Both the position numbers and the translations under genes were made by a program. This document shows, piece by piece, positions 8,995 through 13,313 of a stretch of 32,000 nt of DNA. The stretch is from Candidatus Electronema halotolerans (GTDB lineage: Bacteria; Desulfobacterota; Desulfobulbia; Desulfobulbales; Desulfobulbaceae), in assembly GCA_942493095.1 (NCBI GenBank), contig OW818675.1:523406-555405 (forward strand), in the 5' to 3' direction. Each line of letters starts with the position of its first letter. Positions within the stretch are counted from its first letter, which is position 1. Under the pieces are notes generated by a model that worked only from the letters and a program-made list of their open reading frames with translations, did not search any database and was not told where the DNA came from.

Positions 8995-9294
8995 ATGACA
9001 GAACGAAAGCTCGGTGTGGTCAAAGAAATCGTCGAAGAGGTGGGCATGGGCATTTCCCATGTCTATGAAGATTTGGTCTTTCTCGACCATAACGCCATCT
9101 TGCTCCAGTTCACCGATGACAGCAGCAAACTCCTGCTGCGCATCAACCGCGAGGCGGATCAAGAGACGGCTGCCAGTGGTGCGGCTCTGCTCAAGCAGGC
9201 GGGGTTGGCGCGGGAAATGCAGTTTGTGGAAAGCGGCAGCTATGCGCTGGCCCAGGACGGGCCGGAACAGGTGCGGATTGAGTTTTTCTCCTGA
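8995..9294 (+). CDS. Hypothetical protein.
   Basis: A 99-aa ORF with protein-like composition, in operon orientation. The alternative frame (9014..9304) is Arg/Ser/Cys-rich junk. No family recognised and the RBS is weak. Confidence 0.45.
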   Translation: MTERKLGVVKEIVEEVGMGISHVYEDLVFLDHNAILLQFTDDSSKLLLRINREADQETAASGAALLKQAGLAREMQFVESGSYALAQDGPEQVRIEFFS

Positions 9295-9334
9295 GTTGTT
9301 TTAACGAAAATAATGCCTGAACGGAGGTCGGATC

Positions 9335-9556
9335 ATGGCAAAAGCAGATGTGGAAAAATTGCTGGAAGCAGGCGGCAAGGATAAGAAGATCAAGGCAAAA
9401 TATGATGTTCCGGCCACCAAGGAAGAGTTTGTCGCCTTGGCAGCGCAGGACGGCTACAACTTCACCGTGGAGGAGCTGGAAGCTGTGCTCAAAGAATCCG
9501 GCGATGTCTTTGAAAAATACGGCAATCCGCCTAAACGGTCAATTTGGTGGACATAG
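9335..9556 (+). CDS. Nif11-domain small protein.
   Basis: 73 aa. MAKADVEKLLEAGGKDKKIKAKYDVPATKEEFVALAAQDGYNFTVEEL fits the Nif11 N-terminal domain pattern. The GGAGG RBS is 7 nt upstream. A strong terminator follows. Confidence 0.75.
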   Translation: MAKADVEKLLEAGGKDKKIKAKYDVPATKEEFVALAAQDGYNFTVEELEAVLKESGDVFEKYGNPPKRSIWWT

Positions 9557-9562
9557 AAAGAC

Positions 9563-9600
9563 AAAAGAAGGATGCAAGTAATGCATCCTTCTTTTTGTTT
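9563..9600. terminator. Bidirectional rho-independent terminator.
   Basis: Perfect 12-bp stem AAGAAGGATGCA (9565-9576) / TGCATCCTTCTT (9582-9593) with a 5-nt loop. A-rich 5' flank and TTTGTTT 3' flank. It sits between the convergent genes ending at 9556 (+) and 9652 (-). Confidence 0.8.
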
Positions 9601-9651
9601 GACAGGATAGGCAATCTAAATCATTAGATTGATTTTAGCTGATTGCCTTTT

Positions 9652-10209
9652 TTACATTGGAATGCAGAACAACCTCTGGTCGAACGATTCCTTGCCGAAT
9701 ATGTACCAAACACTTCCTGCTGCACTCAAGCAGATTTTATGCACATCGAATGACAATGTCAAAGAAAGATCAGCACCCGCCAATCCTACATTTGGGTGAA
9801 AACCAACAGTTACGTTATGACTGTCAAAATTGTATGATGTGCACCATACTTTGGCACCTGCAACAATAAGACACACTTTAAGCTCTGCTTGCCAGTCTGA
9901 TGGCGTTCCGCATACCTTTAATTCTCCCCCTATTCCTACGATTTTATACAGAGAAACTTCAAATGGTTGGGTTTTGCAGTTGTCAACAGTTTTCAGTGCG
10001 CCAAGAACAGGCATACGAGCTGCTGCTGCACGAACCATAGGAGCTGCTGTGGCAGGCTCTGCCGCATCTCTGCTAATAGCAGAGAGAATCTGCTCTTTAA
10101 GCTTGTCAACTGGCATGTCAGCATGCGCTGCCATCATCTGCCAATCTTTCTCGCTAACATGAGAAGATACAGCTTGTAATGTATCCTTTTCCATTTTTAC
10201 ATCCTCCAT
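9652..10209 (-). CDS. Orphan hypothetical protein encoded in AT-rich island A.
   Basis: A 185-aa ORF that is visibly lower in GC than its neighbours. The second ATG (10194) has a GGAGGA RBS and may be the true start. The acidic/helical N-terminus is followed by a beta-rich, Cys-containing C-terminal half. No family recognised. Confidence 0.6.
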   Translation of the reverse strand: MEDVKMEKDTLQAVSSHVSEKDWQMMAAHADMPVDKLKEQILSAISRDAAEPATAAPMVRAAAARMPVLGALKTVDNCKTQPFEVSLYKIVGIGGELKVCGTPSDWQAELKVCLIVAGAKVWCTSYNFDSHNVTVGFHPNVGLAGADLSLTLSFDVHKICLSAAGSVWYIFGKESFDQRLFCIPM

Positions 10210-10330
10210 GTAATTTGTTAACTTCCATCCAAGATAGATGGAATAATTTTGTCCATTATAATTTGGCTAAAAAAAAATCAATAAAAAAGTATTGTTAGGA
10301 ATAATTATTATTCTTGAAAGTAGGCAAAAA

Positions 10331-10447
10331 TATAGTGTTGCAGGTTTCCGAAGCAGAGTGTTTTAAGGAGTGGTTCGCATTCAATTTGCTAATTTTACTT
10401 GCTTAATATTGGCACAGGCTAACGTAACAGAAAGTTGCAACACTATA
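10331..10447. repeat. Perfect 12-bp inverted repeat enclosing a 93-nt AT-rich segment.
   Basis: TATAGTGTTGCA (10331-10342) and TGCAACACTATA (10436-10447). The pairing extends by TTTC/GAAA after a 2-nt mismatch. It lies at the right edge of island A. Confidence 0.7.
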
Positions 10448-10485
10448 GGTTCAGTTTATTAAAAAAAATGAAGAATGGAATAGGC

Positions 10486-10592
10486 ACGGCTACAACTTCA
10501 CCGTAGAGGAGCTGGAAGCGGTGCTCAAAGAATCCGGCGATGTCTTTGAAAAATACGGCAATCCGCCCAAGCGTTCCATCTGGTGGACCTGA
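10486..10592 (+). pseudogene. Start-less duplicate of the last 35 codons of the Nif11-like gene.
   Basis: Encodes (H)GYNFTVEELEAVLKESGDVFEKYGNPPKRSIWWT*, identical to the C-terminus of the 9335..9556 product. There is an in-frame TAG at 10447-10449 and no ATG/GTG/TTG between it and the repeat. Confidence 0.7.
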
Positions 10593-10621
10593 GCGGAACC
10601 AGAGGCAGCAGGGCGGCTCAA

Positions 10622-11728
10622 TCATCTTGCCGGGATGCTCCGGGATGCCTTGACCGCCGCTGCTGCCGCATCATGAAACCAAGGCCGGAACTGGCGGATT
10701 CTGCTGTTCTCCCGGCTCGGATGAACCCGGTTGCTGAGGAGAATGACAATCAGCTCCTGCTCCGGGTCGATCCAGAATGAAGTGCCGGTGAAGCCCAGAT
10801 GACCGACACTTTGGGCGGAGAAATGCCTGCCGCTGCTGGATGAGCCGGGCGTGGGTCTGTCAAAGCCGAGACACCAGGTCTGGCCGGAGAGCTGCGGCTG
10901 CAAGCCTTGGGACAGAAAAGCCGCCCAAGAGCTGGCCACGGCTTCCCCTCTCTCACCCTGCCAATTATCCAAAATCACCCCGCAGAGCTGCAACACCCCG
11001 CTGACTGTGCCGAACAATCCCGCATGACCGGCAAGGCCGTTTACGAGCCAGCAATGCTCATCATGCACCTCACCCCGCATCATCCTGCCCCGCCATGAGC
11101 ACTGCTCTGTGGCGGCGCAGTTCTGCCTCTGCTCCACGCTGACCTGACAGAGCAGCTCTTTTCCCAGCCCCAGCGGCCCCGCAATCCGCTCCTGAAAATT
11201 GGCGGCCAAATCCTTGTCAGTCAACTCCTCCGCTATCCACCCCAGCAGAATGAAGCCAAGATCGCTGTACAAACAGCGGCTCTCCGGCGCATAGGCCATT
11301 GGCTCGTTGAGAATGAGACGAAGCAACCGCGCCTTGTGGTCCGTTTTTTGCACCGGCGCAAAGGTCTTGAACCACGGCTGATAAGCGGCCAGCCCGGATG
11401 AATGCGAGAGCAGCCTGCGCAGCGTGATCTGCTGTTTGTCCGGCGGCACATCAGGCAGCAGATCAGCCAGCCTGTCTTCCAGCCGGAGCCGCCCTTCCGC
11501 AAAAAAATCGTAGAAAAGCAAGGTGGTCGAAAGGGCCTTGCTCAACGAGGCCAGATCAAACAGGGTGGCCGCCGTCACCAGGGACTGGTCGCGGCTGTCC
11601 ATGACTCCGGCCCACGCTGTCCACGTCTGCCGGGCCGGGCCAGTGCCGCAGGCGACTGCCGCTGCCGCGCCGGGAAAAACCTGTTCGGCAAGCCCCTGCC
11701 GCAGGAGCCGCTGTAGTGTCTGGATCAT
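10622..11728 (-). CDS. Serine hydrolase of the beta-lactamase / penicillin-binding-protein (class C-like) family.
   Basis: 368 aa with SxxK motif FDLASLSKAL, a YSDLGFILLG (YxN-like) motif and a late HLGFTGTSFWIDP (K/HTG-like) motif. Confidence 0.85.
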   Translation of the reverse strand: MIQTLQRLLRQGLAEQVFPGAAAAVACGTGPARQTWTAWAGVMDSRDQSLVTAATLFDLASLSKALSTTLLFYDFFAEGRLRLEDRLADLLPDVPPDKQQITLRRLLSHSSGLAAYQPWFKTFAPVQKTDHKARLLRLILNEPMAYAPESRCLYSDLGFILLGWIAEELTDKDLAANFQERIAGPLGLGKELLCQVSVEQRQNCAATEQCSWRGRMMRGEVHDEHCWLVNGLAGHAGLFGTVSGVLQLCGVILDNWQGERGEAVASSWAAFLSQGLQPQLSGQTWCLGFDRPTPGSSSSGRHFSAQSVGHLGFTGTSFWIDPEQELIVILLSNRVHPSRENSRIRQFRPWFHDAAAAAVKASRSIPAR

Positions 11729-11749
11729 GTTTGAGGGTCATATTTGGGT

Positions 11750-11894
11750 GTTGAAAACTTGTTGAAAACCTGTTGATAACTTGTTGATAACTTCCTGCCG
11801 CCGCTGCCGCCCGCCGAGTTATCAACAAGTTATTAACAAAGTTATCAACACCTCTTTTACTGAAAAACAAGCAGGTTGCGTTAGTTTTCAACAG
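11750..11894. repeat. Phased array of 11-bp repeats forming a long imperfect palindrome. The 9-mer cores resemble DnaA boxes.
   Basis: Four tandem units: GTTGAAAACTT, GTTGAAAACCT, GTTGATAACTT, GTTGATAACTT (11750-11793). A 24-nt GC-only spacer follows. Then come inverted units GTTATCAACAA, GTTATTAACAA, GTTATCAACAC (11818-11851) and a distal GTTTTCAACAG (11884-11894). TTATCAACA matches 8 of 9 positions of the TTATCCACA box. A nearly pure A/T tract follows at 11921-11946. Confidence 0.8.
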
Positions 11895-11958
11895 GTGCGG
11901 CCCGTCCCAACAACAATAGGTTATATATATACAATATATTTATTAAGGCCGCTCCGAC

Positions 11959-12048
11959 CTGTGGAAAACTGCGTCATAAAAAAAGCCCGTGACCAAAAAG
12001 ATCACGGGCTGCGAACATCTTTGAACGAAAAACGGTCAGCGGCTCACC
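11959..12048. repeat. Direct repeat copy 1 (DR1), a terminator-containing ~90-nt segment.
   Basis: Aligns by eye with 13053-13144, roughly 85-90% identical with a few 1-2-nt indels. A further partial copy of its first ~10-20 nt (GGAAAACTG/GAAACTGCGT) lies at 12068-12086. Confidence 0.75.
11978..12010 (-). terminator. Rho-independent terminator downstream of the DUF559-fusion gene.
   Basis: Minus strand: AGCCCGTGA-loop-TCACGGGCT (9-bp stem) followed by a U-run (the A-run 11978-11984 on the plus strand). Confidence 0.7.
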
Positions 12049-13052
12049 GTAGCTGAAAAAAAGAGGCGGAAAACTGGAAACTGCGTTGGAGATTCAAATT
12101 ATCGTTATATATCAAACAGATTCAGTTGAACAAAACCGGGTTCTTTCAAATTGATTTTTTGCTGGGCAGACTCACCTTCTTTCAAACCGCCTAATCTGTT
12201 GATATTTTTTACTATTGTCGGGACACAATATTCGGATGCGCTTTCTTTTACTTGGAGGGTATTAAAACGAAGCACTCTCCAGCCTTCTGTTTTCAAATTA
12301 TTGTCACGAACATTATCTTTTGCGGCTTGTTGACGATTTGCGTGCCAAAAGTCTCCGTCTGTTTCAACGTCAATCTTTCCTGATTGACAATATATTGCAA
12401 AATCCAAAGCATAGTGTCTGTTATTAACATTTACAAACTCCTGACGTTCCGCATTTATCTGCAACCGTTTAAATTCTGACCATAAACGGTCTTCAAGGGG
12501 ACTTGCATCGAAAAGATCATTTATTTCAACTGCTGTGACAAACTTTTCCCATGTTGTCGAAATGAACACTAATCGTCTGTAACGCCTGCTGAGAATAGGT
12601 TTTGGTAAACGTTTAAGGGGCGGATCGATAAAAATTTGGTAATACCTTTTCCTGCTTTTTACATTAGCAGGTTCATCAGGAAAAAGCTGCCATCTGTAAG
12701 CCTTTTTGATATCTAATATTTTCGCGTAATAGTTTATCGCATAAGCATCTTTGCCAAAGACTTTCGTCATGTAAAACGCTATAAAGCAAGGAGGCCAACG
12801 CTTTTTCAGCCATTTCTCAACGCTGCTGACAGGAATCCGATACCAATGCTTTTCATTCACAATGGAAAAATCATGCAAATTGTTAATTATTGCCACAAGC
12901 ACTTCGTTATGCAAATCGTTATCCATTACAACAGCTTCAAATGAAGGCCTTCAACAGCAGCCAAGTTAATCCGCGCATCTGCCCCCTCCACGCGAGAACT
13001 TCAGCACTTTCCGAAAAATCATCCAAGGCATGGAATTTCAGACAGTACCAAT
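12049..13052. mobile_element. AT-rich single-gene insert (island B), bracketed by ~90-nt direct repeats.
   Basis: Visibly low-GC DNA with one gene, lying between DR1 (11959-12048) and DR2 (13053-13144). No recombinase gene. Confidence 0.5.
12105..12926 (-). CDS. Two-domain protein: an uncharacterised N-terminal domain fused to a C-terminal DUF559 / Vsr-like (PD-(D/E)xK superfamily) endonuclease domain.
   Basis: 273 aa. The C-terminus HYALDFAIYCQSGKIDVETDGDFWHANRQQAAKDNVRDNNLKTEGWRVLRF is the DUF559/Vsr-type motif set. I do not recognise the N-terminal ~150 aa (HWYRIPVSS...PPCFIAFYMTKVFG...). Codon usage is strongly AT-biased relative to neighbours. Confidence 0.75.
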   Translation of the reverse strand: MDNDLHNEVLVAIINNLHDFSIVNEKHWYRIPVSSVEKWLKKRWPPCFIAFYMTKVFGKDAYAINYYAKILDIKKAYRWQLFPDEPANVKSRKRYYQIFIDPPLKRLPKPILSRRYRRLVFISTTWEKFVTAVEINDLFDASPLEDRLWSEFKRLQINAERQEFVNVNNRHYALDFAIYCQSGKIDVETDGDFWHANRQQAAKDNVRDNNLKTEGWRVLRFNTLQVKESASEYCVPTIVKNINRLGGLKEGESAQQKINLKEPGFVQLNLFDI

Positions 13053-13144
13053 CTGTGAAAAACTGCGCCATGAAAAAAGCCCGTGACCAGAAGATCACGG
13101 GCTGCGAAACATCTCTGAACGAAAAAGCTCGTCAGCGGCTCACC
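13053..13144. repeat. Direct repeat copy 2 (DR2), covering the stop codon, 3' UTR and terminator of the YTD-type operon.
   Basis: Aligns with 11959-12048. It overlaps the TGA (13140-13142) of the 57-aa ORF. Confidence 0.75.
13073..13103 (-). terminator. Rho-independent terminator of the tusA-dsrE-like operon.
   Basis: Minus strand: AGCCCGTGA-loop-TCACGGGCT followed by TTTTTT. It lies about 40 nt downstream of the stop at 13140. Confidence 0.75.
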
Positions 13145-13313
13145 ACCAGCAGACAGTCTTGTCAGCGGCGAAAATCTTGCTCACCAGCTCATCGTAGTTG
13201 GGATTTTCCTCATAGAGACGGAATTCATCCGCCTCCCGGTCACGGTTGAGAATCTCAACCAAGGTCGTGACCACCTCGTTCGGCTCGGAACGATACACTT
13301 GCAGCATTTTCAT
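13140..13313 (-). CDS. Small conserved-hypothetical-type ORF (57 aa), last gene of the tusA/dsrE-like operon.
   Basis: Below the ORF-track size cutoff. The ATG at 13313 is preceded by AGGAGGAGAA. My translation is MKMLQVYRSEPNEVVTTLVEILNRDREADEFRLYEENPNYDELVSKIFAADKTVCWW*. It starts 15 nt after the upstream gene's stop. Confidence 0.6.
   Translation of the reverse strand: MKMLQVYRSEPNEVVTTLVEILNRDREADEFRLYEENPNYDELVSKIFAADKTVCWW

Follow-up and report, generated by a model that had tools for sequence, protein, structure and literature searches.

How single genes come to stand between direct repeats in a chromosome, with no mobile-element machinery in sight, is the question raised by two AT-rich islets, A and B, which lie within 3.7 kb in the chromosome of the cable bacterium Candidatus Electronema halotolerans. 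We analysed them in a stretch of 32 kb (the window, taken at its whole length) together with fetched loci of other genomes and metagenomes, which are given by their L numbers. The first-pass annotation of the window had described each islet as a single minus-strand gene with a strong AT bias, inserted at the 3' end of a very small host open reading frame (ORF) of 73 or 57 aa. These descriptions were borne out. The sole credible gene of islet A (cargo A) occupies 9652-10194 (or up to 10209) and that of islet B (cargo B) occupies 12105-12926, both on the minus strand; the GC content inside both islets is 0.39 as against ~0.57 in the host and 0.53-0.54 in their flanks; and both sites are found empty in relatives. 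With a confidence slightly better than even, we regard both islets as scars of "3' end displacement" for which host recombination, rather than an enzyme encoded by an element, was responsible.

The host target of islet A is a Nif11-domain gene of 73 aa (9335-9556, plus strand; Pfam PF07862, E 5e-14), which shows 70-96% amino acid conservation across Desulfobulbaceae with a length constant at 73 aa (105 homologues). The islet is bounded by a direct repeat of 103 nt (9450-9552 and 10486-10588, 96/103 identical), and the GC content between the two copies is 0.39 compared with 0.54 in the flanks. Copy 1 (9450-9552, plus strand) is in frame within the functional Nif11 gene. It is of host type to ~9531, and its last ~25 nt (from 9532) are foreign, synonymous and AT-richer, reading CCT AAA CGG TCA ATT TGG TGG ACA TAG. 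Copy 2 is of host type and lies at 10485-10592 on the plus strand. Its 34 codons and TGA are translated into exactly the last 34 residues of Nif11 and the stop, so that all differences between the copies within the coding sequence are synonymous; the stop codons are TAG in copy 1 and TGA in copy 2. Copy 2, the displaced resident 3' end of Nif11, contains no in-frame start codon and is located ~30 nt from the end of bla, the host gene between the islets. The right junction of the islet is at 10485/10486, where a microhomology, AGG(C)ACGG, is shared between 10483-10489 and 9447-9453. A hairpin with a 14-bp stem (9563-9595), a bidirectional terminator, separates Nif11 from cargo A, which is convergent with it. 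The AT-rich region 5' of cargo A (10195-10485, minus strand) is homologous to L070/L071 only to ~10318, and 10319-10485 showed no similarity to L070-L073 or L119.

The empty site of islet A, consisting of an intact Nif11 gene, 25 nt and then bla, was found in L124, L125 and L063/L064. L124 is 98.96% identical to the window on the left of the islet and 97.3% on the right, and the corresponding values for L125 are 92% and 85.5%. The Nif11 gene of L124 corresponds to the 5' part of copy 1 joined to the 3' part of copy 2. Copy 1 is identical to L124 up to 9531; from there on, the third positions of seven codons and the stop codon are different: the L124-type resident tail reads CCC AAG CGT TCC ATC ... 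ACC TGA, whereas copy 1 reads CCT AAA CGG TCA ATT ... ACA TAG. Copy 2 differs from L124 at only 2 of 103 sites (GTA and GCG, near the 5' end), which fits the local divergence of 1-2.7% and indicates that the remnant is young. Since islet A is absent from L124, L125 and L063/L064 and copy 2 is nearly unchanged, islet A is a very recent gain in the window lineage; one gain is more parsimonious than three losses.

The tail of copy 1 and the terminator behind it are of the L119/L071 type; this tail differs from those of L124, L125 and L063 and is nearly identical to the one that ends Nif11 in Electronema F1 (L119). In L070/L071, the same TAG, a homologous hairpin and cargo A are found between Nif11 and an ammonium transporter gene, with no repeat. 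Because the order of TAG, hairpin and cargo A is native there and the tail resembles that of L119, the Nif11 tail appears to have been imported with cargo A. Judging from these comparisons, the functional Nif11 gene now ends in a tail derived, like cargo A with which it came, from a cable-bacterium lineage of lower GC; the hairpin at 9563-9595 arrived with the islet as well, and the resident tail has moved ~1 kb downstream. Two independent short-read Logan assemblies of the same organism (L001 and L002; ERR9669565 and ERR9670067) both break within repeat A, at window position 10538. Breaks are to be expected at a repeat, and a mix of occupied and empty alleles could be hidden there.

Islet B is inserted behind p57, a conserved ORF of 57 aa (13140-13313, minus strand) that is the last gene of a TusA/DsrE-like operon and has orthologues in 35 loci. 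When gaps are allowed, its repeat covers 13037-13177 and 11943-12075 (141 and 133 nt), with a core of 93 nt at 88% identity. The proximal copy (13037-13177, minus strand) contains the functional 3' end of p57 with its TGA (13140-13142) and a terminator hairpin (13078-13103). The distal copy (11943-12075, minus strand) contains a decayed p57 tail, the stop codon, a terminator hairpin (11984-12010) and ~45 nt more, and continues unbroken into the ancestral bla promoter region. The first-pass annotation had put both flanking repeats at 90-107 nt including the stop codon; the stop codon is included and the length agrees for islet A, but it is an underestimate for islet B. In the distal copy, a frameshifted coding remnant of p57 is retained that is no shorter than 33 nt in the window and 52 nt in L062. 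Because this remnant lies 5' of the old stop codon, the original duplication was at least 150 nt, and the distal copy represents a decaying displaced tail. Both copies keep an intact terminator stem, which makes functional sense if one terminator ends the TusA-p57 operon and the other ends cargo B. The 5' leader between the proximal copy and the start codon of cargo B (12927-13036, minus strand) is conserved with L063 and L062. Cargo B is downstream of p57 and co-directional with it. The islets thus share the repeats, the AT bias and the position at gene ends; the orientation of the cargo to the small ORF differs, being convergent in A and co-directional in B. In L062 (5790-5950), ~90 extra nt with an inverted pair, GTTCCAC...GTGGAAG, are present between the cargo B stop and the distal repeat, and the p57 remnant is longer there; this could be a relic of a cassette attC site or could simply reflect less decay.

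The empty site of islet B was found in seven Electronema genomes (L003-L005 and L008-L011), in which p57 is followed by a single terminator, ~290 nt of a conserved AT-rich/operator region, and bla. The occupied site is present at the identical position with both repeat copies in three lineages, namely the window, L063/L064 and L062, and among these the proximal copies group with the proximal and the distal with the distal. The nucleotide identity of the cargo B gene (a DUF559 gene, see below) to that of the window is 88.5% in L063 and 87.3% in L062, and the flanking bla and YeeE genes show 89% and 88-91%. As the divergence of the cargo matches that of the flanking host genes, islet B represents one old insertion followed by vertical inheritance; it formed once, in the ancestor of the three lineages. 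The tail of p57 is unoccupied in 31 other p57 loci, and the p57 3' end was thus rejected as an insertion hotspot. Since the two events are separated in time, islets A and B are independent, as had been proposed, and they are of different ages.

None of the 29 window ORFs tested, which comprise both cargo genes and the main candidates across the 32 kb, matched a Pfam family of recombinases or transposases, and no terminal inverted repeats bound either islet, in agreement with the first-pass reading of the islet ends. The window contains no other direct repeats of 35 nt or longer outside coding paralogues, no intI/attI platform and no cassette array in one orientation; the window repeats fold only as an 11-bp terminator stem and not as attC. 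Signs of an insertion sequence, transposon or casposon (a transposase, Cas1, terminal inverted repeats, a duplication of 2-15 bp) were not found, the duplications being 103 nt and at least 130 nt and unlike each other in sequence. A target-site duplication by a transposase was rejected on the same grounds and because the A copies differ only synonymously and by the stop codon. The length and identity of the repeats are far beyond chance, and an assembly artefact was rejected as well, given repeats of 103 and ~135 nt, independent Logan contigs that stop in repeat A, and orthologous repeats in L062-L064. Self-comparison of the 1.27 Mb of fetched loci revealed no further AT-rich repeat-flanked islets besides orthologues and attC arrays. 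The proposal of a dedicated recurring mechanism or of a new mobile-element class is therefore unsupported: islet B is one old event, p57 is no hotspot, and no more examples were found in the fetched loci.

The comparisons directly show two insertions of different ages, a remnant that was displaced, a synonymous tail of foreign origin and no mobility gene among the tested ORFs; the route of recombination is inferred, as follows. A small gene of high conservation would offer its 3' end as the place where incoming DNA pairs with the chromosome; in the case of islet A, this DNA would be a chromosomal fragment of another cable-bacterium lineage, or a circle derived from it. A crossover in the short homology would join the resident gene body to the incoming sequence (in A, the foreign tail, the terminator and the cargo), and the other end would be joined upstream of the crossover point. 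This may occur by a single crossover with a circular intermediate (Campbell type, as for Rhs tips) or by homology-facilitated illegitimate recombination with sister-chromatid re-entry; the microhomology is at the far junction of islet A, and both routes predict the same product. The resident 3' end would be kept and shunted downstream as a non-functional copy. The repeats would include the stop codon, and in B the terminator, because they run from the join or break point to the end of the gene homology. The remnant of islet B has decayed since the insertion, and islet A arose very recently in the window lineage. Displacement is recognized by a diverged incoming 3' end linked to new downstream DNA and by a resident 3' end retained as a fragment. 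The former is seen in islet A, and the latter in both islets, as an exact tail of 34 aa in A and as the decayed p57 tail with its terminator in B. Such host-recombination routes are favoured because no mobility gene was found among the tested ORFs, the repeats are host sequence, the cargos occur elsewhere without these repeats, and an ordinary recombinational import is found in L122 (see below). The evidence fits the homology-anchored capture that the first-pass annotation had offered as one possibility, the repeats being gene 3' ends.

Although the architecture had been thought to belong to no nameable class, it matches published C-terminal displacement and prophage att sites in gene 3' ends, such as e14 at icd/icdC. 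For the displacement of Rhs C-termini, homologous recombination through a circular intermediate has been proposed, the old tip being moved downstream by one crossover (Jackson et al. 2009, PMC2935791). Homology-facilitated illegitimate recombination was invoked for effector-immunity displacement in Vibrio's type VI secretion system (T6SS) (Kirchberger et al. 2017, PMC5361080), and a transforming fragment can bridge sister chromatids, creating duplications (Johnston et al., PMC3784515). In Rhs, T6SS and CdiA-CT orphan arrays, as proposed for the islets, incoming DNA is anchored by homology to a conserved part of the resident gene; the gene gains the incoming 3' end together with a linked downstream gene; and the old 3' end is shunted downstream with the conserved fragment, hence the direct repeats, without an element-encoded recombinase. 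Unlike in Rhs and T6SS, the displaced and the incoming tails of the islets encode the same peptide, so that nothing is diversified; the targets are tiny housekeeping-type ORFs (Nif11-domain and p57) and not polymorphic toxins, and the cargo is no immunity gene; and there is one displacement per locus with no arrays, the duplication in B being mostly non-coding terminator. Displacement itself is already known, and its probable scars are described here at small non-toxin genes in a cable bacterium. In Allomyces mitochondria, as Paquin, Laforest and Lang are said to have described in 1994, a mobile endonuclease ORF carries a foreign atp6 3' end and the resident tail is left downstream. There a homing-type endonuclease is reportedly thought to drive the event, whereas cargo B is restriction-like and cargo A is not a nuclease.

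Several points weigh against this interpretation. The homology available for a crossover in A is short, a 47-nt identical stretch within 103 nt, and homology-facilitated illegitimate recombination experimentally usually needs longer anchors and normally gives deletions, not duplications. The 5' ~80 nt of the A copies are almost identical and the last ~25 nt are ~26% different; such mosaic copies are not predicted by a simple donor homologue, and to explain them, ~80 nt of host sequence must have been truly duplicated or the copies must have undergone gene conversion afterwards. The proximal copy of islet B bears no sign of foreign origin, and a pure target duplication of at least 150 nt may account for it. 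As the two B copies have in common states that are derived with respect to the outgroup L003, the nearest empty site, the proximal copy may either have arrived with the islet or represent a genuine duplication of host sequence. The search for recombinases covered 32 kb of the genome and selected ORFs in it, and we know of no natural competence or other DNA-uptake route in cable bacteria. Finally, two rare scars within 3.7 kb, with none in the 1.27 Mb of other loci, are poorly explained by chance and hint at a local hotspot.

A local recombination hotspot is the simplest reading of this clustering. Close relatives have at least five kinds of right-hand neighbour of Nif11 (bla, Obg-ProB, Amt-GlnB, a C_GCAxxG protein and cargo A; compared in L063, L118, L119, L120, L122-L126 and L070/L071). 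The 3' end of Nif11 is therefore a point at which synteny has been broken repeatedly in cable bacteria. The bla gene likewise has differing downstream partners and orientation in other Desulfobulbaceae. In L122 (66-1054; GCA_976560315.1), the HEPN-like gene and p99 are separated by a third AT-rich islet, which consists of one gene on the minus strand, in a locus whose p99-Nif11 segment is 95% identical to window 8995-9552. Its gene encodes a type IV pilin-like protein of 166 aa starting MSMAKQLRNEEGFTLLEVVVV. The 3' end of the HEPN gene is swapped there for an AT-richer homologous tail, with no displaced copy and no direct repeat, which represents an ordinary two-sided recombinational import at gene ends in the same neighbourhood. 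A role of Chi sites was considered and rejected: the p57 tail (13143-13150) holds GCTGGTGG, the Chi octamer of E. coli, which shows no enrichment in the window, with 4 occurrences against 2.0 expected. Both target ORFs end in Trp-Trp, and the Nif11 tails (9539-9545 and 10575-10581) hold CTGGTGG or TTGGTGG; these Chi-like tails are probably a coincidence.

The origin of cargo B bears on the alternatives. Cargo B is a protein of 273 aa with a C-terminal DUF559/Vsr-like PD-(D/E)XK domain at residues 144-230 (PF04480). Its N-terminal domain was modelled at a predicted local distance difference test (pLDDT) score of ~90, and in a Foldseek search residues 1-135 gave ASCH/YTH matches with a probability of 0.98-1.0 at E values of only ~0.008-0.03. 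The model thus matches a PUA-like (ASCH/YTH/EVE-type) domain. Modification-dependent restriction enzymes are built of a PUA-type reader fused to a PD-(D/E)XK or HNH nuclease (Lutz et al. 2019, PMC6765204; PMC7641849), and by its predicted domain architecture cargo B looks like a putative modification-dependent (type IV) restriction endonuclease. The family comprises 1174 homologues at 60-86% identity and reaches Chloroflexota. A relative in Electrothrix (L065) lies between moaA and ybjQ with no repeats. Flanking repeats of 64-135 nt are present at 9-11 of 34 metagenomic DUF559 loci. L082 (74-4402) contains six attC-like imperfect palindromes of 141 nt, spaced 650-1000 nt apart, with all ORFs on one strand. 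At least eight metagenomic loci (L077, L079, L081, L082, L087, L088, L090 and L097) share a cassette left boundary, GTTGGCACGCCCCTTGCA, and an attC-like element starting GTGCCAACACAGCG after the stop; the boundary GTTGGCACGCCCCTTGCAWAACGAGAG is conserved ~35 nt before the ATG in the metagenomic relatives. The putative PUA-DUF559 restriction enzyme thus appears to be a common integron-type cassette, and the metagenomic repeats are part of the cassettes and not of the host. Accordingly, DUF559 was rejected as a self-mobilising element that makes ~100-nt duplications, since the metagenomic repeats are attC-like arrays with cassette boundaries and not host gene tails. It was also rejected as a free-standing homing endonuclease: its homologues are in integron arrays or at unrelated sites, its N-terminal fold is that of a PUA-like reader, and the PADLOC "HEase" match is weak (E 0.002). 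At a further DUF559 locus, L095, the flanking repeat of 94 nt (96-189 and 1084-1177) corresponds to the end of an upstream ORF and takes in its TAA. It shows six synonymous and five non-synonymous codon differences, and is window-like rather than attC, on a contig of only 1.4 kb.

We considered whether the repeats could instead be attL and attR of small integrative elements, of the type of e14 or phage 21 at icd, with a tyrosine or serine recombinase acting in trans or an integrase since lost. This is unlikely. In such elements attP carries the 3' end of the target gene, so that integration restores the gene, and larger islands may have lost the integrase by internal deletion. The architecture of e14 at icd/icdC is the same: the repeat is a gene tail, the differences are synonymous, and a tail has been displaced as a pseudogene (PMC13626634). 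According to that source, which cites Hill et al. 1989, the repeat at E. coli icd/icdC is the last 100-165 nt of the gene, the tail of e14 or phage 21 differs mainly synonymously, the displaced tail is kept as a far-end pseudogene, and excision restores a chimeric functional gene. Islet A is likewise present or absent between 99% identical genomes, and its empty site is the exact recombinant of the two A copies, as if attL/attR-like repeats regenerated the target gene. By the same account, however, e14 is 15 kb long with its own integrase and excisionase and a defined core, whereas the islets are ~1 kb with one gene, and no recombinase was found in them or among the tested ORFs of the window; the recombinase in trans suggested by the first-pass annotation thus gained no support. 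Islet B was already a single-gene islet in the common ancestor of the three lineages, and 31 other p57 loci are empty. A core shared by both repeats was sought by eye and rejected, as they have nothing in common beyond TGGTGG, which comes from the Trp-Trp codons. Moreover, cargo A in L070/L071 adjoins Nif11 without a second att-like copy, and cargo B in L065 stands at MoaA/YbjQ without repeats. The recurrence of the cargo genes with such repeats at other sites had been proposed as a check; cargo A in L070/L071 and the relatives of cargo B recur without host-tail repeats of this kind.

In an improbable reading, the islets would be members of a class of enzyme-less, "homology-addressed" cassettes that has so far gone unrecognised. 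A conserved gene tail would serve as the address, RecA would pop out a circle that re-inserts into relatives by a single crossover, and the Nif11/bla/p57 region would be a preferred docking place. Repeats of 103 nt with a 47-nt perfect stretch can feasibly recombine, the Nif11 gene of L124 is the predicted excision product, the variants of A differ near the inner boundaries (offsets 20, 35 and 83-104) as if the centre had been repeatedly homogenised, and the same model has been published for Rhs (PMC2935791). The only other cargo A lineage (L070/L071), however, has no repeat, and the relatives of cargo B use attC sites or no repeats. A single gain suffices to explain three successive outgroups without islet A, islet B has been immobile through ~12% nucleotide divergence, and the 1.27 Mb of fetched loci yielded no further examples. 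For islet B, an integron integrase may be thought to have put a cassette at a non-canonical genomic (attG/secondary) site by the p57 terminator, which we regard as quite improbable. Integron integrases do insert cassettes at GWT genome sites (bioRxiv 10.1101/2022.09.11.507474), at least eight metagenomic homologues are cassettes as described above, including the L082 array, and faint relics are present in the window, where GCTGTTGAAGG precedes the ATG by 32 nt and GAATCTCCAACGCAG follows the stop. Like integron cassettes, the islets (with respect to cargo B only) are ~1 kb single, promoterless-looking genes of odd composition with direct repeats in the range of 60-140 nt. Integron repeats, however, are attC imperfect palindromes owned by the cassette, whereas those of islet B are host gene and terminator sequence, single in the empty site; unlike integrons, the window shows neither an attC fold in its repeats nor an intI or attI. 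Islet B contains no intact attC, only the host terminator hairpin being folded; the host repeat of at least 130 nt is unexplained, since the text on attG sites describes no target duplication (bioRxiv 10.1101/2022.09.11.507474), and islet A is unexplained altogether. It is very improbable, finally, that no horizontal insertion occurred, with the repeats arising from local tandem duplication or rearrangement of paralogous copies and the AT-rich genes being old residents. The synteny around bla and 3' of Nif11 is indeed highly rearranged, with at least five right-hand neighbours, and the divergence of cargo A from L070 (76%) equals that of the flanking genes (74-76%). This explanation is strongly disfavoured by the clean empty sites in near-identical and successive outgroups (L124, L125, L063). 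In addition, the foreign tail of copy 1, though synonymous, departs from the resident tail by 26%, proteins of other phyla share 60-86% identity with cargo B, and the GC content is 0.39 as against 0.57.

If displacement by host recombination is correct, conserved small genes act as recombination anchors and the old gene tail remains as a scar. The islets provide clean, datable cases of the entry of single accessory genes into an unculturable multicellular bacterium, with no mobile-element machinery seen, and one cargo (B) resembles an anti-phage restriction enzyme, the gene for which is otherwise carried about in integron-type cassettes. In searches for recent recombinational gene gain, gene-tail repeats that differ only synonymously may serve as a signature. 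The islets also warn against taking every repeat-flanked islet for a new transposable element. The enzyme-less cassettes, if they were real, would mean that the Rhs model of tip exchange applies to ordinary genes as well.

Cargo A is an orphan of 180 aa with only 3 homologue clusters, and no match was found in Pfam, NCBIfam or PADLOC. An AlphaFold (AF2) model from three sequences reached a pLDDT of 84 and a predicted template modelling (pTM) score of 0.80. It confidently predicts an N-terminal part of three helices, a disordered linker rich in Ala and Pro, and a beta domain of eight strands; the latter contains six Cys that are invariant among the homologues. Comparison of the model with the PDB gave no match at E <= 0.001.

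The assignment of the window to a cable-bacterium chromosome follows from cargo A, which is 100% identical to GCAAIG_02485, a hypothetical protein of Candidatus Electronema halotolerans, and from bla, the best genomic relatives of which are in Ca. Electronema genomes (66-71% aa identity). On the left of islet A, the plus strand carries, in order, genes for a NifB-like radical SAM protein, p101, GNAT, a HEPN-like protein, p99 and the 73-aa Nif11 protein. Nif11 is followed by islet A, bla on the minus strand, an operator-like repeat region and islet B. On the right of islet B are p57, two DsrE-like genes and TusA on the minus strand, and then YeeE on the plus strand. The bla gene (10622-11728, minus strand) encodes a serine hydrolase of the beta-lactamase fold (PF00144, E 1e-53) and has orthologues in L003-L043. 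Just 5' of it, at 11749-11840, three tandem 11-nt TGTTGA(A/T)AAC units stand opposite an inverted set, AGTTATCAACAAGTTATTAACA. The block is kept in sequence and position in the seven Electronema genomes, and from its motif arrangement it looks like an operator or iteron of some putative DNA-binding protein. With respect to the TusA-DsrE-p57 operon, bla is convergent in non-cable Desulfobulbaceae (L012-L024) and co-directional in Electronema (L003-L011) and the window; therefore bla was inverted at the base of the cable-bacterium clade.

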